Shown: positions 3,369 to 62,261, numbered from the stretch's first letter. The stretch: DNA of 64,000 bases from a bacterium (GCA_030647355.1 JAUSIS010000013.1:177165-241164), one strand, 5' to 3'. Notes: generated by a model from the letters alone, not told the origin. Numbers and translations are program-made.

Positions 3369-3391
3369 CGTACTTCTTACTGCTTACTTTC

Positions 3392-3583
3392 TTACTGCTT
3401 ATCTTTGTAGCACTCGCATTCGCATTCACCGGTCGTGCAACATTTGCATTGGCACTGGCAGCGTTTCCCTAGATCGCAAACATTGCCTACATGCTCTAGT
3501 TTCTCGTCCACTTCCGGCTTTCTATTTCGCAAAAAGCCCAATATCTCATCCAATTTAGCCAGAATCTCCTCGTCTTTATCCAT
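3392..3583 (-). CDS. Small cysteine-rich protein (metallothionein-like or RiPP-precursor-like), 63 aa
   Basis: Strong SD (AGGAGG). Acidic helical N-terminal half (MDKDEEILAKLDEILGFLRN) then 11 Cys in the last 28 aa (CDLGKRCQCQCKCCTTGECECECY). 52 nt downstream of the VanW gene on the same strand. Confidence 0.5.
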   Translation of the reverse strand: MDKDEEILAKLDEILGFLRNRKPEVDEKLEHVGNVCDLGKRCQCQCKCCTTGECECECYKDKQ

Positions 3584-6408: not shown

Positions 6409-6582
6409 GTTGACCTCCGTTACAAATCCAAAATTCGAATTTCAAATATCAAATCAATACCCAAGCCCAAAATCCAAATCTTGACATTTAGCCATTTGGG
6501 CTTCATTTGGCATTGAAAATTGGAAATTTGACATTAAATCTCCCTCAGTACTTATCAGCTTAATTCTTACCAGCTTATTAGC

Positions 6583-8595
6583 TTATTTCACTATAAACCT
6601 GACAATCAGCAGCGCCACAATATTCAACACCTTAATCATCGGATTGATCGCCGGACCGGCTGTATCTTTGTAAGGATCGCCAACCGTATCGCCCGTAACC
6701 GCCGCTTTGTGCGCTTCCGAACCTTTTCCGCCCAAATTACCTTCTTCAATGTACTTCTTGGCATTATCCCAAGCCGCCCCGCCAGTTGTCATCGAAATCG
6801 CTACAAACAAACCTGTTATAATCGCTCCGACCAGCATTCCACCCAGCGCCTGCGCGCCCAAGCCGAATCCAACGATAAACGGTGCCGCAATCGGTAACAA
6901 TGCCGGAAAAATCATCTCTCTTTGCGCCGCGGCAGTCACGATATCCACACATCTTGAATAATCCGGCTTTACCTTGCCTTCCATTATCCCTTTTCTCTCC
7001 TTAAACTGACGACGCACTTCCTGTACTACCGCACCGGCCGCTTTCCCCACCGCTTCCATCGAAAGCGCCCCAAAGAAGTAGGGGAGTAGTCCCCCGATAA
7101 ATAACCCGATCAATACTTTCGGTTCTTCAATCGAGAAACTAATGTGCTTGCCCATGTCGGCAATTTCTTGCGTATATGCAGAAAACAAGACAATCGCCGC
7201 CAATCCCGCCGAGGCAATAGCATAGCCCTTGGTTACCGCTTTGGTCGTATTGCCCACAGCATCCAGTGGATCCGTCACAGCCCGCACCTTATCACCCATC
7301 TCGGCCATCTCGGCAATTCCTCCGGCATTATCAGTAATCGGACCATAAGCATCAATCGCCACAATAATTCCTGTCATGGATAACATAGCAAACGCCGCTA
7401 CTGCCACTCCATATAATTCAGCCAAATTGTATGAAACCAAAACCCCAGCGGCAATCAGAAGGACCGGCCAGAAAGTCGATCTCATAGATAATGCCAAACC
7501 GGCAATAATATTCGTTCCATGCCCCGTAACTGACGCTTCCGCCACTTTCTGAACAGGTCTGTTCTTGGTAGATGTGTAATATTCGGTAATAATCACCATT
7601 CCTGCCGTCACTACCACGCCAACCAACGAACAATAGAACAGATCCATAACTGTCACGCCTTTCAAACCCTTCATCATCCAGTTTGTGATAGGGTAGAAAG
7701 CCGCAATGGCAATAACCGCCGAAACAATCAAGCCTTTATACAACGCTTTCATAATGTCATTATCTTTACCCAACCTGACAAAGAATGTCCCGATAACCGA
7801 AGCCAAAACTGATACCCCGCCCAAAGCTAGAGGATAGAGAACTGCATTCTCATTGTTTTTAAATAGTAAATTACCCAGTAACATCGCCGCTACAGCCGTC
7901 ACCACATAAGTTTCGAACAGATCAGCCGCCATACCCGCGTCATCTCCGACGTTATCGCCTACGTTATCGGCAATAACTGCCGGATTTCTTGGATCATCTT
8001 CCGGAATTCCCGCTTCCAATTTACCGACCAAATCAGCGCCGACATCGGCTGCTTTAGTATAAATTCCGCCTCCCAATCGAGCAAAAATAGAAATAAGCGA
8101 GGCTCCGAATGCCAAACCAATCAAACTCTTAACATCATGCGTAACAGAATAAAAAACCGTCACGCCAAGTAATGCCAAACCCGCTACCAGTAAACCAGTT
8201 ACAGCACCTCCGCGAAATGCCAAAGTTAAAGCTTGTCCTAAACCCTGTCTGGCTTTCTCGGCTGTCCTGACATTAGCTCTAACTGCTACATTCATGCCAA
8301 TATAACCGGCTGCTGCCGATAAAATCGCTCCCACGGCAAAGCCCCAAGCTGTTGTCCAGCCCAGTTGTTTGACAAAACCAATAACTAAAAATAATACTAA
8401 AGCTACCATCGCTACCACGCGATATTGACGATTCAAATATGCCGAAGCGCCCTGCTGAATCGCTAGTGCGATTTCCTGCATTTTCTTGTTGCCAGCATCT
8501 TGTGATAAAACCCAGCGAATTAAATAAACACCATACAAAATGGTGATAATTGAGGCACCGACTGCCAAACGAACAGGTGTAAGCCACTCTGGCAT
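6583..8595 (-). CDS. hppA: Membrane-bound proton/sodium-translocating pyrophosphatase
   Basis: 670 aa polytopic protein with hallmark H+-PPase motifs ([39 protein letters not shown]). Confidence 0.93.
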
Positions 8596-8961
8596 ACTGC
8601 TCCTTTCTTAATAAATCCAAATGGCAAAATCCTAATTTCCCAATCAAAATCCAAATTTGTAAAAGTCAAAAATTTGAACTTGGGGTTTGAACTTAATTCG
8701 GCATTTGCCATTAGAAATTTGAAATTCTATTATTTCCCCTTAAATTTACCAAAATATCGCTCATCTGTCAAACGCCTTCAATTGTCATTGCGAGGCAATG
8801 CCGAAGCAATCTTTCCTCCTCCACCAACACATGCAATTGATTTTTCCCGTTTTTTAATATAAAATCAACCCAGCCAATAAGAGTAAGGATTAATCCTTGC
8901 CGCCTGAGATCCTGGGATTTATTCCAGGACCAAATCCAGGTCAATTTGGAGGATTCGTACC

Positions 8962-18560: not shown

Positions 18561-18664
18561 ACCTCCGTTGTTTTTTAGTAAAATCGCTGCGACTTTACTG
18601 AGCGGTTGACTTTCTCAAGATCGTCAAGTAAAATCCAAATAGAACATAAAAAATAAAATATATG

Positions 18665-18800
18665 TCTTATCAAGAGTGACGCTAGGGAATTGGCCCAGTG
18701 ATCGTCCAGCAACCTTAAATCTAGTAGCTTATATGCTTACTGCTTACCAGCTTACTAACTTATTCGGTGCTAAATCCAAGCCCCAGAGGCAAGATAATAC
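18665..18800 (+). promoter_or_regulatory. SAM-I (S-box) riboswitch in the metK leader
   Basis: tcttatcaagag / gctagggaattggcccagtgatcgtccagcaacc / ggtgctaaatcc / gataa match the SAM-I consensus P1-P2-P3 and P1 closing. The P3 loop carries a copy of the cttactgcttaccagcttac dispersed repeat. Confidence 0.75.
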
Positions 18801-18804
18801 ACTC

Positions 18805-18827
18805 AGCGCCTCACGGCGCCTTTTTAA
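18805..18827 (+). terminator. Riboswitch expression-platform terminator
   Basis: gcgcctcacggcgcc hairpin then ttttt, 30 nt before the metK ATG. Confidence 0.6.
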
Positions 18828-18856: not shown

Positions 18857-20023
18857 ATGGAAAGAACACTTTTTACGTCTGAATCGGTTACAGAGGGACA
18901 CCCCGACAAAATGGCTGACCAAATTTCCGATGCGTTGCTTGATGCCCTTCTGGAAAAAGATGAAAAATCCAGGGTGGCAATCGAAACGCTTCTTACTAAT
19001 GGAGTCTGTATCATTGCCGGAGAAGTCACTACCAACGCCTATGTAGATATGGCAAAAATCGCCCGCAAAGTAATCAAGGAAATTGGTTACAATGGCTGCG
19101 GCTTCCATCATGAAACAAGCGGAGTCATGACAGCCATTAAAGAGCAATCTTCCGATATTGCCCAAGGTGTTGACAGCTATGTCAAAACTGAAAGCGGTAA
19201 GATCGTCAGAGAAGATCTCGAGCATCTGGGCGCCGGCGATCAAGGATTAATGTTCGGATACGCCTGCAATGAAACGCCCGAGCTGATGCCCCTGCCAATA
19301 ATTCTCGCTCAACGGCTATGTCAAAAATTAGCATCCGTACGTAAAAAAGGGACTATTACCGGCTTAAGACCAGACGGTAAATCGCAAGTTACCATCGAGT
19401 ACGTTGACGACAAACCAAGCAGAATCCACACTGTACTCATTGCCGCCCAGCACGACCCATATAAAGACATCAAAAAACTCCGCAAAGAAATAACCGATAA
19501 AGTCATTAATCCCGTGCTAAAATCTTATGGACATCGGATAGATTCAAAAACCAAGATTTATATCAACACAACCGGCAAATTTGTCATTGGCGGACCGGAA
19601 GGCGACACCGGCTTGACCGGCCGTAAAATCATCGTTGACACTTACGGCGGCTATGCTCGGCATGGCGGAGGCGCTTTCTCGGGCAAGGATCCGTCCAAAG
19701 TTGACCGCTCCGGCGCCTATGCCGCCAGATGGGTAGCCAAAAGCATCGTCGCTTCGGGATTAGCCGAAAAATGCGAGGTTCAATTGGCTTATGCTATAGG
19801 TAAACCGGAACCGCTTTCTATCTATGTTAATACTTTCCAAACTAGTAAAAAGACTGACGAAGAAATAATTAAAAAAATCTCTGACAACTTCGACTTAAGG
19901 CCTGGCATGATTATCAAAAACTTAGGACTAAGACGCCCGTTATACCGCCAGTGTGCCGCTTATGGCCACTTTGGTCGTCCGGAACTAAACCTCCCATGGG
20001 AAAAAGCTAAAAAAATTAGATAG
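18857..20023 (+). CDS. metK: S-adenosylmethionine synthetase
   Basis: 388 aa. [13 protein letters not shown] and [16 protein letters not shown] motifs. RBS aaaggag. Confidence 0.95.
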
Positions 20024-20150
20024 CTTAATTCTTACCGCTTATTGCTTACCAACTTACTCCCAGTCATTGCGAGGCCTCAGCCGTGGCAAACCCCCCATAT
20101 CCTTCGAGCCCGGTCGAGAAGCTCTTCTTAATTCTTACTGCTTATTTCAC
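20024..20150. repeat. Composite dispersed repeat (family A ends plus family B core)
   Basis: cttaattcttaccgcttattgcttacc at each end of a cagtcattgcgaggcctcagccgtggcaaa...gagcccggtcgagaagctcttc core. About 95% identical to the copy at 22040-22160. Confidence 0.6.
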
Positions 20151-20164
20151 TTGGAGAAAATACT

Positions 20165-21094
20165 ATGCCTATCACCGTACACCACCAACCACCAACCACC
20201 AACCACCAACTAGTTATCGTCGGCTCTATCGGGCTAGACGATATTGAAACACCATTTGGCAAGGTTAAATCAGCTTTGGGGGGTAGCGCCATCTATGCAT
20301 CGCAAGCCGCCTCCTATTTTACCAAACCAAGTGTTGTGAGTATCATGGGCAACGATATACCAGAAGAATACTTGAAAATCCTCAACCGGTTCGATATTTC
20401 CGGCATAGCCCTAACTGAAAAAACCTTTCGTTGGACCGGGTCATACGAATATGATATGAATGAAGCCAAAACCATTGATACAAAACTAAATGCCTTATCT
20501 GAATTTGAAGCCAATGTCCCTAAAAATTATCAAGAGGCAAAATATCTCCTTCTCGGTAACATCGACCCCGACCTGCAACTCAAAGTATTAAGCCAAATGA
20601 AAGACCATCCCTTCACCTTGCTTGATACAATGAATTTTTGGATAACTTCGAAGCGCGACAAACTCGAACAAATAATCAATAAAGTCAACTTTTTGGTGAT
20701 CAACGAGGGGGAAGCAAGACAATTCTGCCAAACACCCAACCTGATAAAAGCCGGAAAAATGTTGCTCAATCTAGGACCAAAATTTATAGTCATCAAAAAA
20801 GGGGAACATGGTGCCTTGTTATTCTCTAATAATGATTTCTTCTCTGCTCCCAGCTATCCCCTGGAAGAATTAAAAGATCCGACCGGTTGCGGCGACTCAT
20901 TTGCTGGCGGGCTAATCGGTTATCTTGCCAAAACCGACCAAATTAGCGAAAAAAACATCAGAAAAGCCATTATTTATGGTACAGCCGTCGCTTCGTTTTG
21001 CGCTGAAGATTTTGGCACCAAGAAAACTATTAAATTAACAATTAAAGATATCGAGGAGCGATATGACTTTCTCACCAAAATCAGACAATTTTAA
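20165..21094 (+). CDS. PfkB-family carbohydrate/nucleoside kinase (probable adenosine kinase)
   Basis: 309 aa. Ribokinase-like fold. C-terminal DPTGCGDSFAGGLIGYL anion-hole motif. Sits between metK and ahcY. N-terminus contains HQPPTTNHQPPTTNHQ from a caccaac x4 DNA repeat (20180-20210). Confidence 0.75.
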   Translation: MPITVHHQPPTTNHQLVIVGSIGLDDIETPFGKVKSALGGSAIYASQAASYFTKPSVVSIMGNDIPEEYLKILNRFDISGIALTEKTFRWTGSYEYDMNEAKTIDTKLNALSEFEANVPKNYQEAKYLLLGNIDPDLQLKVLSQMKDHPFTLLDTMNFWITSKRDKLEQIINKVNFLVINEGEARQFCQTPNLIKAGKMLLNLGPKFIVIKKGEHGALLFSNNDFFSAPSYPLEELKDPTGCGDSFAGGLIGYLAKTDQISEKNIRKAIIYGTAVASFCAEDFGTKKTIKLTIKDIEERYDFLTKIRQF

Positions 21095-21147
21095 ATAAAA
21101 TCTCAAAATGTACTACCAAAAACCCCATAATATGATATAATTAAGAT

Positions 21148-21420
21148 ATGAATTATCAAAAATACACTTGGTATAATCGAAACGCAAAACTAGACAACCC
21201 CGAGACAATCCATCAAGTACTGTCATTTGGGAAAATTGATGAGATCAAGAAGATGGAACACATGCTTGGGTTAGAACAAATCACGCAAGTATATTTAAAA
21301 TATCCAAAAAATATTTATTCCCGACCGGTTTTCGCCTTTATCAACAAATATATTCTCAAAAACAAGGAGCCCATAGATGAGCGAAAATATCTCAAAAATA
21401 CATCTCGAAATCTTGAGTAA
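21148..21420 (+). CDS. Hypothetical small protein, possible antitoxin partner of the AbiEii-like gene
   Basis: 90 aa. Overlaps the downstream nucleotidyltransferase gene by 44 nt. No recognisable motif. Confidence 0.3.
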   Translation: MNYQKYTWYNRNAKLDNPETIHQVLSFGKIDEIKKMEHMLGLEQITQVYLKYPKNIYSRPVFAFINKYILKNKEPIDERKYLKNTSRNLE

Positions 21421-22039
21421 ACAGCAACAAGAAGTTCTGTTAAAACTCCAGCCGGTCCTAAAAGATTTCGTCCTCGGCGGCGGTACGGCGTTGGCGCTAC
21501 AGATCAAACATCGGCAATCTTTCGATTTCGATTTCTTTACTCTAAAACCAATTGATAAAAATCTACTGGAGAAAATTAGTCAACTCGGTTTTTCGTCAAC
21601 TGCGCCAATATTTGATAGCGTTGATGAATTAACTCTGATTATTGACAATGAAATCAAAATAACCTTTTTGTCTTATCCGTTTTCTAAAATATTTAATCTC
21701 GTTTTTCTAGATCAAAACATCCAAACATTCTCCCTCTCCGGCCTTGCAGCCCAAAAAGCTTATACAATCGGTAGGGGTGGAGTCTGGCGCGATTATTATG
21801 ATATTTTTACCTTACTTCGCCACAAATTTTTTACTCTAAAGGAAATCATCGGATTGACCCAGAAAAACTACGGTGACATTTTTAATCCCAAGCTGTTTTT
21901 GTCGCAGCTGGTCTATTTCGAGGACATTCAGGATTACTCCATTGAGCCAATCAATAATAGCTTAAACCCAATAGCTAGTAACGAAGTTAAAGCTTTTTTA
22001 GAAGAAGAAGTAGAAAAATATCTTGAAAGCATCAAATAG
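21377..22039 (+). CDS. AbiEii/AbiGii-family nucleotidyltransferase (type IV toxin-like, DUF1814)
   Basis: 220 aa. N-terminal FVLGGGTALALQIKHRQSFDFDFF matches the LKGGTAL...R.S.DIDF motif of AbiEii nucleotidyltransferases. Confidence 0.6.
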   Translation: MSENISKIHLEILSKQQQEVLLKLQPVLKDFVLGGGTALALQIKHRQSFDFDFFTLKPIDKNLLEKISQLGFSSTAPIFDSVDELTLIIDNEIKITFLSYPFSKIFNLVFLDQNIQTFSLSGLAAQKAYTIGRGGVWRDYYDIFTLLRHKFFTLKEIIGLTQKNYGDIFNPKLFLSQLVYFEDIQDYSIEPINNSLNPIASNEVKAFLEEEVEKYLESIK

Positions 22040-22160
22040 TCTTATTTCTTACCAGCTTACTCCCAGTCATTGCGAGGCCTCAGCCGTGGCAATCCCCCCC
22101 ATATTCTTCGAGCCCGGTCGAGAAGCTCTTCTTACTACTTACTAGCTTATTGCTTACTAG
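22040..22160. repeat. Composite dispersed repeat, second copy
   Basis: cagtcattgcgaggcctcagccgtggcaatccccccc...gagcccggtcgagaagctcttc flanked by cttaYttcttac...gcttattgcttac motifs. Confidence 0.6.
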
Positions 22161-22177
22161 CTTCTGAAAGGAACAAC

Positions 22178-23581
22178 ATGTCACTACCCGCCAAGTCAAA
22201 GGACTACAAAGTCGCCGACCTCTCGTTACACGAGTGGGGTCGAAAAGAAATTGAATCAGCCGAAAAAGAGATGCCAGGACTGATGGCTCTCCGCCAAGAA
22301 TATGGCTCCCAAAAGCCCCTGAAGAGCGCTAGGATAGCCGGTTGCCTGCATATGACTATTCAGACTGCTGTTTTAATTGAAACCCTCTTAGAGCTCGGCG
22401 CAGAAGTTCGCTGGTCCAGTTGCAATATCTTCTCCACTCAAGACCATGCTGCTGCTGCCATTGCCAAAAAAGATATACCTGTTTTTGCCTGGAAAGGTGA
22501 AACAGAAGAAGATTATTGGTGGTGCATCGAGCAAACCCTAAAATTCCCAACCAACCCCTCCGTCATTGCGAGGAACTCCTCTTCCGTCATTGCAAAAGCC
22601 TTTAGCCCCGGACTCGATCCGGGGGAAGAGAAGCAATCTTCCCAAGGTCCCAACATGATCCTCGACGACGGCGGAGACTTAACACTGCTCGTTCACGAAA
22701 AACACCCTGAACTTCTCAAGGACATCATCGGCGTCTCCGAAGAAACAACTACCGGAGTTCACCGGCTTTATCAGATGATGGAAGCGAAAACTTTGAAAAT
22801 GGCCGCCATAAATGTGAATGATTCGGTCACCAAATCAAAATTTGACAATAAATACGGCTGCCGCGAATCTCTCGCCGATGGCATCAAACGCGCAACCGAT
22901 ATCATGATTGCCGGAAAAGTAGTTGTTATCGCCGGTTATGGCGATGTCGGCAAAGGCTGTGCCCAGAGCATGCGCGGCTACGGCGCCCGAGTTATTATCA
23001 CAGAAATCGATCCGATAATTGCCCTGCAAGCAGCCATGGAAGGCTTTGAAGTTCTCACGATGGATCAAGCCGCCGAGATAGGGGACATATTTGTCACCGC
23101 CACGGGCTGCTGTGATGTTATAACTGGTAAGGATTTGGGAAAGATGAAAGACGGCGCAATAGTCTGCAACATCGGACATTTTGATAGCGAAATAGATGTC
23201 AAATGGCTGGAAGATCAAAAAGACATCAAGGAAGAAAACATAAAACCCCAAGTTGATCGGTTTATTTGGCCAAACGACAAATCAATTACCTTACTCTCCC
23301 GCGGCCGTCTCGTCAATTTAGGCAATGCCCACGGCCATCCCAGCTTCGTCATGAGCACCTCCTTCACCAATCAAACGCTCGCCCAGATCGCCCTCTACAC
23401 CGAGAGCAGAAAATACGAAAAAGGAAAAGTTTACACTCTTCCCAAAGAATTAGATGAAAAAGTCGCCCGCCTCCACCTCGACAAGCTCGGCGTCAAATTA
23501 ACTAAGCTTACTAAAAAACAAGCCGACTACCTAGGCATCCCCCAAGACGGCCCTTTCAAACCCGATTCCTATCGTTATTAG
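22178..23581 (+). CDS. ahcY: Adenosylhomocysteinase with a 33-aa in-frame repeat insertion
   Basis: Start at [26 protein letters not shown] (the ORF-track start at 22070 reads through the upstream repeat). NAD-binding [11 protein letters not shown]-terminus ...KPDSYRY. Insertion [33 protein letters not shown] between the conserved LKF and [10 protein letters not shown]. Confidence 0.92.
22550..22648 (+). repeat. Family-B palindromic repeat inserted in-frame inside ahcY
   Basis: 99 nt: two gtcattgc half-sites, palindrome ccccggactcgatccgggg and gaagagaagcaatc. Related to the intergenic gtcattgcgagg...gaagcaatc copies. Length is a multiple of 3 with no stop. Confidence 0.6.
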
Positions 23582-23616
23582 CTTAATTCTTACCGCTTAC
23601 GAGCTTATTGCTTATA

Positions 23617-23650
23617 TTTGCCCCTACAAACCCGACTCCTACCACTATTA
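23617..23650 (+). pseudogene. Short remnant copy of the ahcY terminal codons
   Basis: gcccctacaaacccgactcctaccactattaa versus the genuine 3' end ggccctttcaaacccgattcctatcgttattag (about 80% identity), 36 nt after the real stop and separated from it by a family-A repeat. Confidence 0.4.
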
Positions 23651-23737
23651 ACAATTGTTACTTGGGAATGAATTCCCCTCAATCCTTACTAGCGGCCTAT
23701 AGCCAAGACCACTGAAAAACTTACCCCATAGTAGTCA

Positions 23738-23835
23738 TTGCGAGCAAGGCGAAGCAATCTCTAAACAAGGAACTGATTGCCACGGCCATTAAAAACGGCC
23801 TCGCAATGACAATCTAGAATGTTTTTCAGCGATCC
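23738..23835. repeat. Family-B palindromic repeat plus gtttttcagcgatc arm
   Basis: gtcattgcgagcaaggcgaagcaatc ... ggcctcgcaatgac inverted pair, then gtttttcagcgatc, which is inverted relative to gatcgctgaaaaac at 25167-25181 on the other side of the AAA-ATPase gene. Confidence 0.55.
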
Positions 23836-23847
23836 TATAGCCACCTA

Positions 23848-23887
23848 TTGACAAAAATGACTCCATAAATTATAATAAATTTATGGA
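23848..23887 (+). promoter_or_regulatory. Consensus sigma70 promoter with overlapping palindromic operator
   Basis: TTGACA(23848-23853)-N17-TATAAT(23871-23876). Palindrome ctccataaatt-ataat-aaatttatggaa spans the -10, with a third ctccataaatt half-site just downstream. 50 nt before the AAA-ATPase ATG. Confidence 0.6.
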
Positions 23888-23926
23888 ATTGAACTCCATA
23901 AATTAATCTTAATATAAGGAGTTACT

Positions 23927-25066
23927 ATGACAAAATACACTCAAATACCAAGAGTATATGATAATCTGGAAAAATACTTAAAAAAAAATACCGTACTGGT
24001 GATTTATGGTCCAAGGAGAGTGGGGAAAACTACCATACTCAAAAACTTTCTAAAGAGCTATAAGGGCAAATACAAACTTAGCTCTGGAGACGATATTGAT
24101 GTCCAAGAAATCGTAGGATCCAGCCGCTTTTCTACTATTCTTGAATATGCAAGTAATATAGATCTTTTGGCCATTGATGAAGCTCAAAAGATTAGGGGGG
24201 TCGGTCAGGGTCTAAAAATTATAGTTGATCAGATAGAGGGCATTATTGTCATCGCAACAGGATCATCATCTTTTGATTTGGCTAATCAAGTCGGAGAACC
24301 ATTGACCGGACGCAAGAAGACGCTTACCCTATACCCCATAGCTCAAAAAGAACTCAAAGATTATTTTGGCGTATTTGAATTAAAGAAAAAACTACCGGAA
24401 TTTCTAGTTTTCGGTTCATATCCAACAATCATAACAGCCAAAACAAAAGAAGAAAAAACTCAACTACTTCTCGAAATAGTAAATTCATATCTCTTAAAAG
24501 ATATTTTAGCTTTGGATAATATCAAAAATTCCACTTTCATTATAAATCTCTTAAAGCTGCTCGCTTTTCAAGTTGGATCAGAAGTATCGCTAAATGAACT
24601 CGGCACCCAGCTTAATGCCGATGTTAAAACAGTAGCAAGATATTTAGATCTTCTTGAAAAAACCTTTGTCATAACAAGACTAGGTGGGTATAGTAGCAAT
24701 TTGAGGAAAGAAGTAACAGACAAATACAAATATTACTTCTGGGATAATGGAATTCGCAATGCAATCATCTCTCAATTCAATAATCTGGAGGACAGAAACG
24801 ATGTCGGTCAACTCTGGGAAAATTTCATCGTGATTGAACGGCTAAAGAAGTTGTCGTACGACAATATCTACGGCAATCGCTTTTTTTGGCGGACATATGA
24901 TCAAAAAGAAATAGACTTAATTGAAGAACGAGACGGAAAACTCTTTGGCTACGAAATAAAGTGGGGCACAAAGAAAGTCAAGAATCCCGACGAGTTTTTA
25001 AAAACATACAACAATGCCAGTTTTAAAGTGATAAGTCAGGATAATTACATAGAATTTATCAGCTGA
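23927..25066 (+). CDS. AAA+ ATPase with DUF4143-like C-terminal domain
   Basis: 379 aa. Walker A GPRRVGKTT, Walker B LLAIDEAQ. C-terminal region typical of the ATPase/DUF4143 family. RBS aaggag. Confidence 0.7.
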   Translation: MTKYTQIPRVYDNLEKYLKKNTVLVIYGPRRVGKTTILKNFLKSYKGKYKLSSGDDIDVQEIVGSSRFSTILEYASNIDLLAIDEAQKIRGVGQGLKIIVDQIEGIIVIATGSSSFDLANQVGEPLTGRKKTLTLYPIAQKELKDYFGVFELKKKLPEFLVFGSYPTIITAKTKEEKTQLLLEIVNSYLLKDILALDNIKNSTFIINLLKLLAFQVGSEVSLNELGTQLNADVKTVARYLDLLEKTFVITRLGGYSSNLRKEVTDKYKYYFWDNGIRNAIISQFNNLEDRNDVGQLWENFIVIERLKKLSYDNIYGNRFFWRTYDQKEIDLIEERDGKLFGYEIKWGTKKVKNPDEFLKTYNNASFKVISQDNYIEFIS

Positions 25067-25330
25067 TTAGCCTCGCCTCATTTATCATTCTGAATCTTCT
25101 CCCCCATCATTCTAACCCGTCATATCTTGTCATTCTGAACTGTCAAGTGAAGAAGCGAGATCGCTGAAAAACCTCCTTCGTCATTCCAAAACCGGGTGGC
25201 ACCCAATATTTGGAATCCAGATATGAGGTTAATAGATTCCGGATCCGCCTTGGCTCGAAAGACAGGTCTGGGATCCCATTCCTGAATCAAGTTCAGGACA
25301 GACTCCGACCGGAATGACGATTTTAAAGGC
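25060..25330. repeat. Cluster of gtcattctgaa / cgtcattcc repeat words with a long imperfect palindrome
   Basis: gtcattctgaa (x2), cgtcattccaaaacc ... ggaatgacg inverted about 140 bp apart, and gatcgctgaaaaac. A variant of the family-B gtcattgcgag repeat. Confidence 0.5.
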
Positions 25331-25501
25331 TTTCACTGGGTTTTTCAGCGGACTCGAAGCTTCACTTCACTTCCTACACCGTCAATTTGAAAAAAACCAA
25401 AAATCCAAAGCAAAAGGACCTGTCCCTAAGAGGTCTTACTTATTGATAAACATACCATTGATTATATATTCGAAATACATTAAAATTAAGTTGAGGCAAA
25501 A

Positions 25502-25843
25502 ATGAAACTAAATAAATTGATCAATGAAACAAAAGGGAAATATTTTAGAAAATTTGATCCTGAAATGGTTCACTTTTATCGTACAAAAATGCCTAAAAAA
25601 TTAAATGTTAAAATTCATCAAGATGAAAACTGTAATAAATATTGGGCTGAAATTGATTTTGATGGTAAGTCTTCTAAAGATAAAATTTTTACTCAAGCAA
25701 AAAATCTGAACAATATCGACACTATGATCAATGATGCCATTGCTACATATTATGAAGTACCTTTTATATACGCAAAGCATATAGTAATAAGCAAAAATTA
25801 TGAACCTGAGGGAAAACTCAAAGAAACACTCAGAACTACCTAA
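25502..25843 (+). CDS. Putative HicB-like (UPF0150) antitoxin
   Basis: 113 aa. YWAEIDFDGKSS...FTQAKNLNNIDTMINDAIATYYE resembles the HicB N-domain (Y.A...G...TQGDTLEEALENAKEAIELYLE). Sits 8 nt upstream of hicA. Very low GC. Confidence 0.4.
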   Translation: MKLNKLINETKGKYFRKFDPEMVHFYRTKMPKKLNVKIHQDENCNKYWAEIDFDGKSSKDKIFTQAKNLNNIDTMINDAIATYYEVPFIYAKHIVISKNYEPEGKLKETLRTT

Positions 25844-25851
25844 GGAATAGG

Positions 25852-26076
25852 ATGGGGCTCAAACCTTGTACTGCGAAAAAGTTAATACGCTCATTTATTA
25901 AAAATGGATGTATTATTATTGATGGCGGGAAAGGCTCTCATACAAAAATTAAACACATCAAAACTGGCGCCACAACGACAATCCCAAAAGGAGATCTAAC
26001 CAACGTACGACATGCAATACTCAACTGGGCTGAAAATCTCGGAATCACCAAAGACAATATAGAACAATATTTATAA
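25852..26076 (+). CDS. hicA: HicA-family mRNA interferase toxin
   Basis: 74 aa. LKPCTAKKLIRSFIKNGCIIIDGGKGSHTKIKH...TTTIPKG matches the HicA (YcfA) pattern K..EL...L...G......GSH......TIP.H. Confidence 0.65.
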   Translation: MGLKPCTAKKLIRSFIKNGCIIIDGGKGSHTKIKHIKTGATTTIPKGDLTNVRHAILNWAENLGITKDNIEQYL

Positions 26077-26289
26077 AAGATTACATGGGATTTATCAGCT
26101 AATTAGCTTATCCCACCTGCAGAACCCCGCTAAAGGCGGTAGCCACTTATTAGCTTACAAGCTTATTGCATATTAATATTATCGTTCGAGGCCAGGCCGA
26201 GAACTTAACCTTTTAGTTCTCGATTCTCTTCGATCTCTCGAACAATATTCTATTCTTAATCCTTACAATCTTACCAGCTTATCGCTTGC

Positions 26290-26408
26290 CGGCTCGTAAT
26301 CATCTCGACAAACTCGGCGTCAAGCTAACAAAATTAACCAATAAACAAGCCGACTACCTCGGCCTCCCCGTAGGTGGCCCATATAAAAGTGATAATTACC
26401 GATACTAG
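26290..26408 (+). pseudogene. Displaced copy of the ahcY 3' end, about 2.7 kb downstream of the intact gene
   Basis: Translates to [35 protein letters not shown], against the genuine AhcY C-terminus [35 protein letters not shown]. About 75% nucleotide identity. No upstream ahcY body. Confidence 0.65.
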
Positions 26409-26424
26409 CACGTAGGAATAAATT

Positions 26425-57262: not shown

Positions 57263-57410
57263 CTTTCTACCTTCCTCGCTTAGTTAGTTATTCTTTGTTA
57301 AAAACCCTCGCGCAGACCGAAGCGGGCATGGTGTCGCAAAGCGACGAGCAAGGACGAGCGGGAGCGCAATTTTCTCGCTGGGAAAATTGATAGCGTGTTT
57401 TCGGCAAAGC

Positions 57411-58133: not shown

Positions 58134-58277
58134 ATTTTCCTTTCTGACTCAAATTTTCTTTACTTCGAGTTTGCATAGCCCTTCCTCATCATTGCGAGCG
58201 TAATGTGGCAATCTTTCCCTTTCCCAACTTACTTCTTACTGCTTATTGCTTAATTCTTACTAACTTGCCGGCCTTTC

Positions 58278-58832: not shown

Positions 58833-59023
58833 TTTCCCCTCCTATCTCGAGCAAGCCGAGATAATTACTCACCTGTAATATATCATTGATAGTAAGTGTT
58901 AGTCAATAAAGTTTTATTATCGATGGCAAAAGAAATAATTAAAAAATTACAGTAATCACGCCAGATAAACCACCAGCACACCTGAAATACCTCAAATATT
59001 TGAGATTTTACCATCAATCACAT

Positions 59024-59049
59024 GGCGGGACACCCGGGTCTAGAACCTT
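59024..59049. repeat. GGCGGGACACYCGGGYCTAGAACCTT motif, copy 1
   Basis: Identical-orientation copies at 59024, 60828 and 62059, each in a minus-strand intergenic region. Confidence 0.6.
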
Positions 59050-59082
59050 TATTTACTTCAATATCTCTTTCTTCCCCCTACT

Positions 59083-59649
59083 TTATTGTGCGGCTGGCAA
59101 TTCGGGTGGTAGGGATTGTTGATACAATGTTTGCAACCAGTACGTACCTAGTATTACTAAGCCGACTACTATGATAATAGATAGGATAAAAACAACAACA
59201 CCCCATTTCGTCCATGATTGCTGGACGGCCTTAAATTGTTCCACGTTTTCAAACTTACGGTTCTTCCATGCCCATTCATTACCTTTAATTCCCAGAATGA
59301 TAGCTACGACTAAGGTCATCGGACCAATTAGAGTTAAGAGTATGACACAGATTTGATAGGCAATTGACCAAGCTTGTACGCTACCGTTAATACCAATGAT
59401 ACCCAGGATAACGGTTATAGCTAAACTTAATGGCCCAATGAGAGCAAATAATCCAATCCAAACCCGATTGCCGATTGACCAAATCCATGTCAAGGAAAAA
59501 GCGCCCCAATTCCATCGATTTAACTCTGGAGGAAAAGGTCTATTAGAGCCACCGGCACTCGGAGTTGCATTAGCAGAGGGACCAGTCAGCCTAGACAAAG
59601 TATTGTCTGCAGACGAGGCAGGGGACGTCGAAGATATAGTTTCTTCCAT
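59083..59649 (-). CDS. Hypothetical membrane protein with Pro/Ala/Ser-rich N-terminus
   Basis: 188 aa. Low-complexity N-terminus then about 4 TM helices. Confidence 0.4.
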   Translation of the reverse strand: MEETISSTSPASSADNTLSRLTGPSANATPSAGGSNRPFPPELNRWNWGAFSLTWIWSIGNRVWIGLFALIGPLSLAITVILGIIGINGSVQAWSIAYQICVILLTLIGPMTLVVAIILGIKGNEWAWKNRKFENVEQFKAVQQSWTKWGVVVFILSIIIVVGLVILGTYWLQTLYQQSLPPELPAAQ

Positions 59650-59689
59650 GTTTCCTCCTTATCTATTATACCTGCCAAGTAAGTGATCC

Positions 59690-59860
59690 TTGGCGGAAGG
59701 GGTGGGATTCCTCCTCCCCCGTCGTTTCACTGTGCTGCCGCACCCTGGGCGCTCACATCTCGCTCCCGCCGCATTTGTGCTCGTTATTCCTCGCACGCGG
59801 CCCTCCGGGGCCTGGGAGTCTCGCTGACGGCTCACAAGAAATATTCGCCTTTCCTCCACC
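59690..59860. ncRNA. GC-rich (about 65%) island, candidate structured RNA of unknown class
   Basis: A 170-bp segment with GC content far above flanking DNA, in the gap between two minus-strand CDSs, rich in complementary G/C runs (ggaggaggaatcccacccc, ccccggagggccgcg). No confident match to RNase P, tmRNA or SRP consensus. Confidence 0.3.
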
Positions 59861-59862
59861 TT

Positions 59863-60807
59863 TTACTGCTCATTTTTAAAAAAAGACTCAGCCTGTTTAA
59901 ATGATTTTTCTAGAATATCCAATTGTTCATTTAATCCGTAAAGTGGCGATGTAAGAGATCGCAATCTGAGAACCAATGTATTGGTATCTTCTGAATTTAC
60001 AACTTCATCGGGTCTAAACTCAGGATGTTCAGGATATTGATGCACATGAGCCATAAATGAATCAATATCTTCTTTCACATTTTTTATCGTAATCAAAAAT
60101 AAAGTCCTACTATGGTCAAACCCTTGTCTCTGTTGGCTAATTATTTTTGGATCAACCTTATCAAAATTATCCAGTTGTTTAATTGATGTATCGTGGAGCG
60201 TATTAATCCGTAGCTCAGTCCTCTTAACTTCATCTAGTACTTCAGATTGCACTTTCTCTAATCGTGCAATAACCTCTTCAAATGTGTACCCCTTTTCGGT
60301 AGTAGCTGAGTTTTGGGCAAGCTGTTCGCCTATTTCATGATTTAACTGTATTTTTTCCTTTCCTGTTTGTGCAGCCTTACTGGCCCACTCTTGAGTATCG
60401 GTCGAGATCGGCTCACCGGCAGCTTGTAATATTTTTTCAGCTAACTCGTCCTGCAATATCATTACTTCTCGCTCCAAGTCCTCGCATTCCCTATGCTCCT
60501 TAGGCTCTTGATTATCATCCATAAATCTGTTATTTACCGATATCATAGATCGTAAAAAACTTGCTTCCGATTTACTTGCTCTTAGTTCCGGGACTTTCTC
60601 GGCAAACCCACAGGCAAAAAGCAAACTTTCGGTGTCTTTAATAGTATCACCTGTCAATTCAATTTTAGACAATTCTCTCTTCTGGAGTTCCAGTTTCTCT
60701 CTCGTCGACAAAGTGGGTAATTTACCTTCCTTCTCCCAATCAAACCCGTTGACACCCGGTTCATGTTCCACGATAACCTCCTCATATTTTATTTCTAAAT
60801 CAAGCAA
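59863..60807 (-). CDS. Hypothetical coiled-coil protein
   Basis: 314 aa, highly charged with heptad-like segments. No recognisable motif. Confidence 0.4.
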   Translation of the reverse strand: MLDLEIKYEEVIVEHEPGVNGFDWEKEGKLPTLSTREKLELQKRELSKIELTGDTIKDTESLLFACGFAEKVPELRASKSEASFLRSMISVNNRFMDDNQEPKEHRECEDLEREVMILQDELAEKILQAAGEPISTDTQEWASKAAQTGKEKIQLNHEIGEQLAQNSATTEKGYTFEEVIARLEKVQSEVLDEVKRTELRINTLHDTSIKQLDNFDKVDPKIISQQRQGFDHSRTLFLITIKNVKEDIDSFMAHVHQYPEHPEFRPDEVVNSEDTNTLVLRLRSLTSPLYGLNEQLDILEKSFKQAESFFKNEQ

Positions 60808-60827
60808 TAACCAGGGAAATATTCTAA

Positions 60828-60852
60828 GCGGGACACTCGGGTCTAAAACCTT
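60828..60852. repeat. GGCGGGACACYCGGG motif, copy 2
   Basis: agcgggacactcgggtctaaaacctt, 20 nt upstream of the 59863..60807 start and downstream of tRNA-Ser. Confidence 0.55.
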
Positions 60853-60888
60853 CTGACCCTGTCCTCTGCCACCTGTCTTCTGGATTTG

Positions 60889-60975
60889 CGGTGAGGGTGG
60901 GATTCGAACCCACGGAGCCCTTACGAGCTCAACATCTTAGCAGGATGCTGCCTTCAACCTCTCGGCCACCTCACC
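60889..60975 (-). tRNA. tRNA-Ser (anticodon GCU), class II with long variable arm
   Basis: Reverse complement GGTGAGGTGGCCGAGAGGTTGAAGGCAGCATCCTGCTAAGATGTTGAGCTCGTAAGGGCTCCGTGGGTTCGAATCCCACCCTCACCG. Anticodon loop CT-GCT-AA, GTTCGAATC T-loop. No encoded CCA. Confidence 0.85.
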
Positions 60976-61980
60976 ATATGAATCCAAATACTTCTTAATA
61001 TGTTTAGGATTGTGACTTCCTATTTCTTGAAAATATTTTCTAACATCCTTGGTATCATACAATCTTAAATCTCCACGACAATCTACCTTAGGATGAATAC
61101 CAATCTGCTCTAAAATTATCTTGACCGATTCTATCAAATTCACTGACCGTGAGCTAAATCCTATTTTATAATAAATGTATTGCTTACCTCTCACGGAATA
61201 TCTATGCTTGTACACACATCCATCTGTATCAACCAACCCCCTAACACAAGCTAACGAATATTTCATATCCTTCTTGATCCATTCCGGAATATCAATTTGA
61301 TGTTTAACCTTATTACCCTTAACCAATCCATTCTTTAATAAATACGCTACTAAATTTTTTCTAGAAACCTGAATATTTACTACGGAATTTCGAATTATTT
61401 CGCTGGGCTGAATTCTAAAAAGTTTTATCATCAATTGACAAACATATTTTGCATATTCCCGATCGTCAACCCGATTTAAAGTGATTGTAACCTGATAATC
61501 TGTAATTCCACCATCACCAATCAGTATCCCAAACATTTCTGCTAAATTCACACTTTTTTTGGGGAACAAGACTATTTTTGGACAGCTTATGCTATTTGTC
61601 GAAAAACGCCCTTTGGTTAGCCACCATTCCTCCCACCCTTTTCTCCTTTTCTCCGGATCAGTACAAATTGTTCCATATTTTCTGATTGTTGTCTCTGCAC
61701 CTAATCGGGCAGCTTTTTTTGTTGACCAAAAAGCCGGACGAATTTCAACATCATCTGGTATTTTTATTCCCATATGGCTAACCAACTTATCAACCGCCTT
61801 CTCCGTCATCGAAAAACGCTCCCTCTTCCAATCTGTCAAAGTCCGAACTCCAACTTCGCAGAATACAGACAATTCTAAATTTGACCCAAACACACCCATT
61901 GCTCTGTTTAAAAACTCTGCCTGCTTCCCCTTTAGGAATAACACGCGATTAGAATAATCTTTTTTAATCAATTCCGCCAT
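60937..61980 (-). CDS. LAGLIDADG-family homing endonuclease (double-motif)
   Basis: 347 aa. Two LAGLIDADG motifs (FGILIGDGG and VRGLVDTDGCV). The 3' end overlaps the 5' half of tRNA-Ser(GCU) by 39 nt. Confidence 0.8.
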   Translation of the reverse strand: MAELIKKDYSNRVLFLKGKQAEFLNRAMGVFGSNLELSVFCEVGVRTLTDWKRERFSMTEKAVDKLVSHMGIKIPDDVEIRPAFWSTKKAARLGAETTIRKYGTICTDPEKRRKGWEEWWLTKGRFSTNSISCPKIVLFPKKSVNLAEMFGILIGDGGITDYQVTITLNRVDDREYAKYVCQLMIKLFRIQPSEIIRNSVVNIQVSRKNLVAYLLKNGLVKGNKVKHQIDIPEWIKKDMKYSLACVRGLVDTDGCVYKHRYSVRGKQYIYYKIGFSSRSVNLIESVKIILEQIGIHPKVDCRGDLRLYDTKDVRKYFQEIGSHNPKHIKKYLDSYGEVAERLKAASC

Positions 61981-62058
61981 ATTTCCATTATACTATGTTT
62001 TAAATGTACAATACAGCATCCCGGCCAAGCGGTGGGGGTGAGATTCGTCCAGCTCTTT

Positions 62059-62084
62059 GGCGGGACACTCGGGCCTAGAACCTT
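62059..62084. repeat. GGCGGGACACYCGGG motif, copy 3
   Basis: ggcgggacactcgggcctagaacctt. Preceded at 62030-62053 by gcggtgggggtgagattcgtcc, a degenerate copy of the tRNA-Ser(GCU) 3' end (gcggtgagggtgggattcgaacc). Confidence 0.55.
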
Positions 62085-62171
62085 GTAAGTCCTTCGACTC
62101 GATTCCTCGCTCAGGACATTCGTCTCGTTTGCTCCCTGGTCGAAGACCATGAGCGAGCAAAGCGAGTCGAA

Positions 62172-62261
62172 TGGCGGAGAGTGCAGGATTCGAACCTGCG
62201 AGAGTCTCTCGACCCTTCTGGTTTTCAAGACCAGCGCCATCAACCACTCGGCCAACTCTCC
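62172..62261 (-). tRNA. tRNA-Ser (anticodon UGA), class II, CCA encoded
   Basis: Reverse complement GGAGAGTTGGCCGAGTGGTTGATGGCGCTGGTCTTGAAAACCAGAAGGGTCGAGAGACTCTCGCAGGTTCGAATCCTGCACTCTCCGCCA. Anticodon loop CT-TGA-AA. Confidence 0.85.

Follow-up and report, generated by a model that had tools for sequence, protein, structure and literature searches.

Intervening-sequence (IVS) elements of 23S rRNA carry a gene for a four-helix-bundle protein (Pfam PF05635), and the IVS ORF is bracketed by a stem. Cyanobacterial STRR heptamers are one kind of intergenic heptanucleotide repeat. Long simple-sequence repeats of 7 nt were described by Mrazek in 2007 (as cited in PMC4679880), and TAACTGA heptamer repeats occur in Beggiatoaceae, Cyanobacteria, and Bacteroidetes, with the binding of S1, Csp, or CsrA as a proposed role and slippage as the proposed origin (MacGregor 2015, PMC4679880). 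Another relevant group is the CGTC-tagged REPs, including Rickettsia RPE-4 and RPE-6 and Neisseria dRS3. These are defined by an unpaired terminal CGTC (TGTC and CCTC are tolerated), an 8- to 9-bp stem opening with A-T and T-A, a 4- to 5-nt loop, and a 3-nt tail resembling CCA; they include in-frame intragenic copies and have no linked transposase (Di Nocera et al. 2013, PMC3733652).

Here, we compare these systems with two repeat families in a 64-kb stretch of an uncultured Patescibacteria (CPR) genome, referred to below as the window, which is the part of that genome covered by our analysis. Family A is a degenerate tandem array of the form (CTTA + 3 to 4 variable bases)n, and CTTA runs at 7- or 8-nt spacing with at least three units were counted as an array. 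The window contains 11 such arrays, every one of them on the + strand (0 on the - strand), versus 0.03 expected from a third-order Markov model, and 1.13 Mb of unrelated control loci contained none. The CTTA core is held to a strict 7/8-nt register across 35 units (20 heptads and 15 octads), while the noncore bases vary. The arrays are poor in G (7.6%) and rich in T (44%), differ in length and sequence, and have fuzzy boundaries; the window also contains (ACCACCA)4.3. The family A arrays are as follows.

3376-3401, + strand: four units (CTTACTG/CTTACTTT) between two - strand genes; TRF period 15, 94%
6551-6585, + strand: five units, overlapping the end of the H+-pyrophosphatase gene (6583-8595, - strand)
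18728-18762, + strand: five units in the P3 loop of a SAM-I riboswitch
20024-20056, + strand: five units, composite 1, metK-pfkB spacer
20127-20144, + strand: three units, composite 1, metK-pfkB spacer
22041-22059, + strand: three units, composite 2, abiEii-ahcY spacer
22131-22156, + strand: four units, composite 2, abiEii-ahcY spacer
23582-23614, + strand: five units, beginning directly past the ahcY stop codon
26146-26165, + strand: three units, downstream of hicA
26255-26281, + strand: four units, directly upstream of a 118-nt ahcY remnant
58228-58259, + strand: five units, after a family B unit, between two - strand genes

Both families are concentrated inside and just downstream of a riboswitch-controlled SAM-cycle operon, metK-pfkB-ahcY, and 8 of the 11 arrays fall within 18.7 to 26.3 kb. 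The first-pass annotation had placed repeats in nearly every intergenic gap, which overstates their reach, as A or B occurs in about 10 of the 32 gaps of at least 40 nt in the window. The SAM-I riboswitch (18664-18800, 50.4 bits) indeed carries array 18728-18762 as a 37-nt insert in its P3 loop, an insert also present in the relative L157, and arrays follow the TAG stop codons of metK, abiEii, and ahcY at a distance of 0 to 1 nt, as had been noted. Moreover, the H+-pyrophosphatase gene takes its stop, TAA on the - strand, from the last CTTA of array 6551-6585. Family A arrays lie 10 to 25 nt upstream of ribosome-binding sites (RBSs), and those at 20127-20144 and 22131-22156 end 13 to 22 nt ahead of start codons; three window arrays do not fit the pattern of ending shortly before a start. 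Across loci, an RBS, a start codon, and an open frame follow within 45 nt downstream for 11 of 65 arrays of at least four units in the sense direction and for 0 of 65 in the antisense direction, and arrays directly abut the ATG in L117, L099, and L154. One promoter-like site alone, at 23848, matches the full consensus (12/12).

The suggestion that arrays double as terminators was not sustained. Composites 1 and 2 fold no better than shuffled sequences (z +0.7 to +1.5), and the terminator scan, which picked up the riboswitch terminator at 18806-18819, detected no site in 20024-20164, 22040-22177, or 23582-23660. The arrays are G-poor and unstructured and lack the hairpin and T-tract of an intrinsic terminator, and we infer that they are cotranscribed spacers. 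An unstructured leader is nevertheless no general property of the family, because inverted array pairs in other genomes do fold (z -2 to -7). A purely mRNA-level role also fits poorly, because the arrays keep to the + strand even between - strand genes; 3 of the 11 lie in such positions, where the mRNA would read GUAAG, not CUUA.

Family B is a small hairpin unit, GTCATTGCGAG...GRAGCAATC. The hairpin is two-tiered, with a GTC head, a 5-bp ATTGC/GCAAT outer stem, a GA-rich internal loop of the form GA(G)/G(A/U)(A/G), and a short, variable apical hairpin with an inner stem of 2 to 4 bp and a loop of 3 to 9 nt; in the tail, a C precedes TTTCC, CCCCC, or TTCCC. With the preceding base included, the heads read CGTC (22560), TGTC (8783), AGTC (20062, 22065, and 23733), and CATC (58187), and in IMG/VR copies that base is mostly T or C. 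The window contains six exact and two one-mismatch matches to GTCATTGCGAG versus 0.7 expected, about 10 times expectation, and together with the array counts this bears out the earlier claim of two discrete families. One of the two one-mismatch matches, at 310, was rejected as a copy, being only the GHYERF motif of CTP synthase. The family B elements and the composites are as follows.

8784-8811, + strand: single unit, GTCATTGCGAG-GCAATGCC-GAAGCAATC, two-tier hairpin
20024-20144, + strand: composite 1 (A-B-A), metK-pfkB spacer
20063-20125, + strand: B unit and second small hairpin of composite 1, metK-pfkB spacer
22041-22156, + strand: composite 2 (A-B-A), abiEii-ahcY spacer
22066-22128, + strand: B unit of composite 2, abiEii-ahcY spacer
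22559-22645, + strand: B element with two heads, one tail, and an inner 7-bp hairpin, in-frame in ahcY
23734-23810: two B units tail-to-tail, a 77-nt palindrome with perfect 11-nt ends, GTCATTGCGAG/CTCGCAATGAC; z -3.7
58188-58214, + strand: B unit with a degenerate head, ATCATTGCGAG, followed by array 58228-58259 (joint span 58188-58259)

The two composites are identical in 96 of 104 columns, or 92%, slightly below the 95% or so first estimated. Recent mobility had been read from this likeness, and for the B core recent copying stands. The related L158 holds different REPs in these two spacers; transposition and gene conversion between spacers 2 kb apart both fit. No transposase domain was found among the 19 window proteins scanned, and no copying mechanism was identified for family B. 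A check for MITEs showed inverted ends at 23734-23810 and 25142-25370, with no flanking direct duplication visible in the sequence and no parent IS element found. Beyond the window, GTCATTGCGAG-N4-20-GRAGCAATC is present in more than 120 IMG/VR contigs of 30 to 72% GC, with an apical part that is mostly a GCGNAGC mini-hairpin or a longer complementary version. The family B unit is cosmopolitan and occurs in many unrelated contigs.

Two regions previously assigned to family B or its relatives belong elsewhere. There is no B motif at 57300-57390, and 25060-25330 contains a palindrome built on canonical CGTC-ATTCC... units, which is a different family. Its inner pair comprises CGTC-ATTCCAAA...TTTGGAAT-CCA at 25179-25219 and an inverted partner ending at 25322. 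The former has a CGTC head, a CCA tail at 25216, and an 8- to 9-bp stem (ATTCCAAA/TTTGGAAT, 25183-25216) but an 18-nt loop. This palindrome and two gene remnants complete the features.

23620-23652: ahcY 3'-end remnant, 33 nt, after array 23582-23614
25145-25368: nested palindrome of about 225 nt, outer arms 25142-25173 and 25339-25370; z -5.5
26292-26409: ahcY 3'-end remnant, 118 nt, directly after array 26255-26281

The B element at 22559-22645 had been listed as intergenic (22550-22648) and is instead an 87-nt in-frame insertion, encoding 29 amino acids, in the essential enzyme gene ahcY. AhcY aligns with rat SAHH over residues 12-130/5-123 and 160-470/122-431, and the insert lies between these segments. 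At this site, 103 of 110 close homologues have a loop of 3 to 5 residues, and the other 7 have 11 to 34 residues. The inserts of other lineages include TGTC-ATTCCCGC REPs, CGTC-ATTCCGGG REPs read in a different frame, and heptad arrays; in L160 and L161, this loop contains canonical CGTC REPs. The 29-residue insert is modeled with a pLDDT below 50 and without secondary structure, and it is probably translated as a disordered loop. L103 provides a second in-frame case, a B dimer within an ORF. The first-pass annotation had missed the ahcY insertion, the 7/8-nt tandem nature of family A, and the uniform strand of the arrays.

Whether copy number and positions vary between related strains had been put forward as a check, and relatives were compared here. 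REP content changes from lineage to lineage, array cores drift (AGCT, AGCTTA, and CTTAATA), and unit numbers differ, whereas the positions are shared: L157, L158, and L161 have arrays at the same operon junctions as the window. All three L157 arrays of at least four units are in metK-pfkB-ahcY, a concentration that is partly ascertainment, since hits to AhcY or PfkB were what led to the relatives. Perfect arrays elsewhere, such as (GCTTATT)7 in L127, (CTTATTCA)8 in L114, and (CTTTATA)8 in L110, are recently expanded. The co-occurrence of the two families, also an earlier claim, extends beyond this genome: heptad/octad arrays adjoin CGTC-type hairpins in two unrelated metagenome contigs (L127 and L114) and, in L161, within the insertion in AhcY. 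The CTTA core recurs at many loci and in contigs of 39 to 61% GC, as does even the 18-mer CTTAATTCTTACYGCTTA; slippage alone is therefore insufficient, and dispersal or motif selection is needed.

On balance, we favor, by a modest measure of confidence, an account in which the spacers hold two known kinds of repeats, slippage-derived A arrays and selfish or gene-converted REP-like B hairpins. Family A would arise and change length via replication slippage, like other bacterial heptanucleotide repeats, and recombination among arrays would keep it similar within a genome. It may be tolerated or even favored, because a G-poor, single-stranded leader by the RBS would not hinder, and may help, translation initiation. 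Family B would spread either as a selfish element, using a copying factor whose gene lies elsewhere, or through gene conversion; copies would survive only where harmless, namely, in spacers (often within or next to A arrays) and in protein loops that tolerate them.

Low-complexity bias or chance, named beforehand as the outcome that would undo the idea of discrete elements, could draw on the strong pyrimidine and C skew of the + strand, the degenerate units, and the fuzzy boundaries. The Markov expectation, the empty opposite strand and control loci, the strict register, the excess of the B motif, and the identical 18-mer in arrays of many other contigs leave it a negligible probability. Less easily dismissed, if still unlikely, is the proposal that the arrays serve a cassette-type mobile system as its cis-acting ends or landing pads. 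In this view, AbiE, the DUF4143 ATPase, HicAB, four-helix-bundle IVP genes, and REPs were inserted between or beside arrays by site-specific or replication-coupled recombination, the + orientation reflecting coupling to the replication fork. Two blocks, AbiE and DUF4143-HicAB, have arrays at their bounds; the ahcY 3' end is present in three copies and that of the DUF4143 gene in two, with the duplicates adjoining arrays; and the pfkB-ahcY interval is occupied by AbiE in the window and by an IVP gene in L157 but is empty in L158. Also, IVP genes are present in L157 and at 6 of the 75 metagenome loci that bear arrays but not in the 1.13 Mb of control loci, and arrays abut the IVP gene, on either side and mostly inverted, in L110, L130, L135, L139, and L157. 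This association with a four-helix-bundle protein hints at a specific partner protein or a mobile cassette, and the placement of all 11 arrays on one strand, with a strong, uniform GC skew, fits coupling to replication. However, no integrase, transposase, or HUH enzyme was found among the annotated genes at 18.4 to 27.4 kb or next to the outlying arrays; the arrays sit at ancestral housekeeping junctions and in a riboswitch loop, conserved in a relative with 80% AhcY identity; and homologous replacement by foreign ahcY-DUF4143 DNA would explain the duplicated gene ends as well. The earlier suggestion of att-like sites is weak: it has the duplicated 3' ends in its favor, but no recombinase domain was found in the genes at 18.4 to 27.4 kb, and the arrays are too variable in length and unit sequence for a defined recombination site such as an integron attC or phage att.

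We give a rather low probability to the arrays being Rho rut sites or mRNA sites bound by S1, a cold-shock protein, or a similar single-strand RNA-binding regulator, through which expression of the SAM-cycle operon would be coordinated or attenuated. The clustering of arrays in and just downstream of that operon, riboswitch included, in both the window and L157 is consistent with such control, as is their G-poor, unstructured, periodic sequence directly past stops and ahead of RBSs, and an equivalent proposal exists for TAACTGA repeats (PMC4679880). Conversely, this clustering is subject to the ascertainment noted above, three arrays are antisense to the local genes, inverted pairs elsewhere put the purine-rich TAAG version after stop codons, and the arrays are T-rich, not C-rich. 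More speculative, and in our estimation a long shot, is that Patescibacteria and some other phyla have an undescribed system, for mobility or maintenance, that uses CTTA-type heptad arrays as its cis sites. The periodic units would be bound by a multimeric four-helix-bundle (IVP/Avd-like) protein, and arrays and CGTC-type hairpins would move small cassettes (IVP and toxin-antitoxin genes) by replication-strand-coupled insertion into spacers, RNA loops, and protein loops. If true, such insertion would explain the single-strand orientation of arrays in this genome.

The repeats can be set beside described systems. Like an IVS ORF between the arms of its stem, a PF05635-type gene is bracketed by usually inverted arrays in L110, L130, L135, L139, and L157, whereas the window has neither such a gene nor rRNA and its arrays are direct and do not fold. 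Family A resembles the TAACTGA repeats in consisting of short tandem units (7 nt in those repeats, 7 or 8 nt here) in sets of two to six or more, almost all intergenic, that point to a downstream start and end a few nucleotides before it, sometimes replacing the Shine-Dalgarno sequence. It differs in that just a 4-nt core (CTTA) is conserved in a register alternating between 7 and 8 nt, that window arrays keep to one strand regardless of gene direction, that inverted pairs form beaded hairpins in other genomes, and that the arrays are linked with REP hairpins and IVP genes.

Family B shares with CGTC REPs a short hairpin, a head that in some copies reads CGTC or TGTC, a stem starting with AT, frequent inverted dimers, and a location mostly between codirectional or convergent genes near ORF ends. 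Like these REPs and Rickettsia RPEs, it has in-frame copies that add 20 to 30 amino acids to conserved proteins, and canonical CGTC REPs coexist with it in the window (25179-25219) and in relatives (L158, L160, and L161). Unlike them, it has a 5-bp outer stem separated by a GA-rich internal loop from a second small stem, in place of a single stem of 8 to 9 bp (a strict 8-bp CGTC REP detector found no B unit in the window), its head is often AGTC, its tail is a C and a run of pyrimidines in place of CCA, its loops are not confined to 4 to 5 nt, and it is flanked here by heptad arrays. Its host phylum, Patescibacteria, also lies outside the phyla surveyed in PMC3733652. Family B is a putative bulged variant of the CGTC-tagged REP/RPE superfamily. 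Both families are of known type, heptanucleotide intergenic repeats and REP/RPE elements, of which they are new members or variants.

Two dispersed repeat families had been placed in nearly every intergenic gap by the first-pass annotation, a description that was largely right, although overstated and partly mislocated. The first of these, family A, is a real repeat, but it is not the 25-bp word originally described: pattern and tandem-repeat scans resolve it into phased tandem arrays with CTTA repeated at a spacing of 7 or 8 nt. The window holds 11 arrays of at least three units, as against 0.03 expected under a third-order Markov model, and 1.13 Mb of unrelated loci yielded none. Among 35 measurable units, 20 are heptads and 15 are octads, the commonest being CTTACTG, CTTAATT, CTTACCAG, and CTTATTG. 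The arrays are poor in G (7.6%, versus 16.6% window-wide), and all 11 within the 64-kb window lie on the + strand, including those at 3376, 6551, and 58228, which sit between - strand housekeeping genes. The + strand GC skew is itself strongly negative across the window, irrespective of gene direction; it runs from -0.1 to -0.4 nearly everywhere between 1 and 64000, yet the + strand carries most of the genes from 9 to 39 kb.

The placement of arrays with respect to genes can be followed in the region around metK, pfkB, and ahcY.

Features of the metK-pfkB-ahcY region
18664-18800, SAM-I riboswitch
18806-18819, riboswitch terminator, the sole convincing terminator of this stretch in a terminator scan
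18857-20023, metK
20165-21094, pfkB-family kinase
21377-22039, 90-aa ORF, then abiEii
22178-23581, ahcY
23927-25066, DUF4143 AAA ATPase
25502-26076, hicB-like ORF and hicA
26425 (start), GHMP kinase

Arrays start 0 to 1 nt past the TAG stops of metK, abiEii, and ahcY, two arrays finish 13 to 22 nt ahead of the pfkB and ahcY starts, and one array supplies the stop codon of a - strand pyrophosphatase gene. A 37-nt insert in the riboswitch P3 loop is also a family A array; the SAM riboswitch was the only Rfam match at an E value of ≤1 between 18.6 and 26.5 kb. Because the promoter-like sites of this stretch (at least 10 of 12 consensus positions) that precede a gene or the riboswitch are limited to 18606, 25443, and 23848 (the last a perfect 12/12), and only the riboswitch terminator is convincing, the simplest reading is that metK through ahcY form a single transcript. 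The site upstream of the DUF4143 ATPase gene (23848-23923 region) is a sigma-70 promoter of perfect consensus, TTGACA-17-TATAAT, overlapped by a 31-nt direct repeat with the palindrome CCATAAATT...AATTTATGG, which is probably an operator; the entire region is conserved in L158, a related genome.

Comparison with L158 and with L157, a second relative, bears on the age of the arrays. Both keep the metK-pfkB-ahcY order, with AhcY identities to the window of 80% (L157) and 82% (L158), and both have arrays at the same operon junctions, immediately before start codons. The P3 loop of the L157 riboswitch carries an array insert alignable with that of the window. Array cores differ (AGCT in L157, AGCTTA in L158), as do unit numbers, and the pfkB-ahcY spacer of L158 contains a canonical CGTC-type palindromic hairpin repeat (REP), so that its REP content is not that of the window. 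The pfkB-ahcY slot is occupied by AbiE in the window, by a PF05635 four-helix-bundle gene between inverted arrays in L157, and by nothing in L158. Judged from these alignments, array positions are conserved among relatives; the comparison indicates that the positions are old, that the array sequences of a genome change together, and that turnover is faster for REPs.

Several further features of these operons were observed. The L157 riboswitch, which scores 32.1 bits (under the Rfam gathering threshold of 44.4 bits), has a second insert at 7230-7258, a small hairpin in the P2 loop, besides its P3-loop array. A perfect (ACCACCA)x4.3 heptad array lies within the 5' coding end of pfkB (20181-20210), and PfkB is 309 aa long in the window versus 297 aa in L157 and L158; since one heptad unit gained or lost would shift the frame, this array could be a candidate phase-variation switch. 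After a MAG protein of 100% identity, the next-best homologues of the window AhcY are from Patescibacteria and Magasanikbacteria MAGs, and the protein is of the short, eukaryote-like type (rat SAH hydrolase match, E value of 7e-199). PfkB has its nearest genome matches in two Patescibacteria MAGs (61-63% identity), followed by DPANN Woesearchaeota (55-62% identity). The AhcY type and the PfkB relatives together suggest that CPR bacteria and DPANN archaea have exchanged genes.

Two composite blocks, at 20024-20144 and 22041-22156, consist of an array, a family B unit with a second small hairpin, and another array, and they are identical at 96 of 104 positions. This likeness had been taken to imply recent mobility, an idea that is partly supported. 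The comparison with L158 does indicate that the B core common to both was copied after divergence from the L158 lineage, and either transposition or gene conversion would fit. The suggestion that the repeats double as terminators fared worse: the composites fold no better than shuffled sequence (z of +0.7 to +1.5), a terminator scan found no terminator-like site within them, and neither A nor B resembles an intrinsic terminator. On the same evidence, the composites were rejected as hairpins. The first composite contains the break point of a short-read assembly of the same organism.

Family B is a REP-like hairpin. Its motif, GTCATTGCGAG, occurs in the window in six exact matches and two with one mismatch, versus 0.7 expected; one of the latter, GTCATTACGAG at 310, was rejected as a copy because it codes for the CTP synthase motif GHYERF. 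The unit forms a hairpin of two tiers, for example GTC-ATTGC-GA-GGC-AAT-GCC-GAA-GCAAT-C, and at 23734-23810 two units lie tail-to-tail in a stable palindrome (z of -3.7). The element at 25145-25368 is not B; it is a nested palindrome of about 225 nt (z of -5.5) with canonical CGTC-ATTCC... units at its inner ends. The generic B unit, GTCATTGCGAG-N4-20-GRAGCAATC, is widespread: more than 120 IMG/VR contigs of 30-72% GC contain it, usually with CG(N)AGC, or a longer complementary form of this, as the apical part.

One B element is translated within AhcY. Alignment with rat SAH hydrolase breaks into two blocks (AhcY 12-130 to rat 5-123 and AhcY 160-470 to rat 122-431), and AhcY residues 131-159 (nt 22559-22645) are therefore an insertion. 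At the DNA level it is a two-headed B element that has a single tail and a 7-bp hairpin inside. An intein or intron was rejected, as 87 nt is too short and the required motifs are absent. The loop at this site has 3-5 residues in 103 of 110 parsable close homologues and 11-34 residues in the other 7. Among the relatives, L160 carries there a tail-to-tail dimer of a TGTC-ATTCCCGC REP, L161 a CGTC-ATTCCGGG REP in another reading frame followed by (ACTCCMA)5, and L158 (AAGCCCC)4. Because different inserts occupy the same spot, the loop is a recurrent, permissive landing place, struck independently in several lineages by differing REPs and by heptad arrays. The insert is not predicted to fold, having a pLDDT of <50 and no secondary structure in an AlphaFold model that is itself only moderate (mean pLDDT of 64).

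Other sequences near the arrays look acquired or duplicated. The ahcY 3' end is present three times: the functional end (23474-23581), a 33-nt remnant (23620-23652; PYKPDSYHY*) also carried by L158, and, just ahead of the GHMP kinase gene, 118 nt left over from an allele that has diverged (26292-26409; HLDKL...). With such copies on either side, the DUF4143-HicAB block appears to have been acquired. A second copy of the final 28 nt of the DUF4143 ATPase gene (25044-25071) follows hicA (26080-26107, 89% identity). Between the two copies lie the nested palindrome and the hicB-like ORF with hicA, an arrangement that looks like insertion of this block at the gene's end. Elsewhere, a LAGLIDADG-type ORF (60937-61980, - strand) and tRNA-Ser(gct) (60888-60975) share sequence in the 5' part of the tRNA. 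Close to a second tRNA-Ser (62172-62261) there are repeats resembling a tRNA 3' half, at 59023, 60826, 62024, and 62058; the 59023-62261 stretch may be a homing-endonuclease or integration hotspot.

Arrays of the A type extend well beyond the window. The 18-mer CTTAATTCTTACYGCTTA matched 75 metagenome contigs and a single viral contig in IMG/VR, so A has no phage link. At least 19 contigs have a TAAG-type array opposing a CTTA-type array, and such inverted pairs form beaded hairpins (z of -2 to -7), a folding that the window arrays lack. For arrays of at least four units, a ribosome-binding site, start codon, and open frame follow within 45 nt downstream in 11 of 65 cases in the sense direction and 0 of 65 in the antisense, and some arrays on other contigs directly abut an ATG. 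One array-bearing contig (L103, 3264-3392) has a tail-to-tail GTCATTGCGAG dimer in frame inside an ORF (…RLSTVIASHRVEREARQSNEKIAEPVPSRTRDLAPRNDNIILK…). The most extreme array-flanked case is L139 (Ga0209692_10000091, 34% GC; 1-2986), where GGTTAAG/AGTTAAG arrays run to as many as 25 units and an inverted CTTA-type array follows each of them. Together they flank three small genes in a row, including one for a PF05635 four-helix-bundle protein.

We propose that slippage and recombination would make and homogenize the A arrays, that B would be a selfish element whose copying depends on a function encoded elsewhere, and that both would persist at harmless sites, where G-poor arrays may help ribosome-binding regions stay single-stranded. 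An alternative, that the arrays belong to a cassette or mobile system, strikes us as improbable, yet it is kept alive by the 11/11 strand bias, by the fact that the CTTA core and the 18-mer are conserved in contigs whose GC content differs widely, and by links of arrays to REPs and PF05635 genes. Two contigs (L127 and L114) have CGTC-type REPs next to arrays or between them, and a strict detector found canonical CGTC REPs at about 11-fold higher density in array-bearing contigs than in controls; near the arrays themselves, it found 2 versus 0.39 expected, a very small count, and a permissive detector, whose hits are mostly false positives, found no enrichment (5 observed versus 5.1 expected). 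PF05635-like genes, usually flanked by arrays, occur at 6 of 75 array loci and nowhere in the 1.13 Mb of controls; a narrower version in which their protein takes part in such a system is less probable still. IS608-like targeting of TTAC within arrays was set aside, as just two independent B copies have CTTAC 5-10 nt upstream and the strand indicated by GC skew does not match.

Patescibacteria genomes are small and gene-dense, which makes persisting repeat DNA in their spacers noteworthy, and these repeats also occupy riboswitch loops and an essential SAM-cycle enzyme. In practice, they break short-read assemblies and seed metagenome catalogues with spurious small ORFs and inflated protein lengths. 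The pairing of arrays with REPs and four-helix-bundle genes, along with their one-strand orientation, could show how such repeats arise and spread.

Full-text matches to peptide and DNA strings taken from the repeats (such as VIPAKAGI and GTCATTGCGAG) were all irrelevant, and no publication in the literature searched connected Patescibacteria to REPs or MITEs. The elements are new variants of already known kinds. The closest published analogue of the arrays is the intergenic TAACTGA heptamer repeats, which face start codons and for which binding of S1, Csp, or CsrA has been proposed (PMC4679880); a general excess of heptanucleotide repeats is ascribed to polymerase slippage by Mrazek (2007), as cited there. 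The CGTC-tagged REP superfamily takes in Rickettsia RPE-4/6 and Neisseria dRS3, lacks a linked transposase, and includes in-frame intragenic copies (Di Nocera et al., PMC3733652). As the window B units fall outside its stem-length, loop, and tail criteria, we call B a bulged variant beside this superfamily, not a member of it. The AhcY insert is a clean natural case, outside Proteobacteria, of the Rickettsia-style "palindromic element in a protein."
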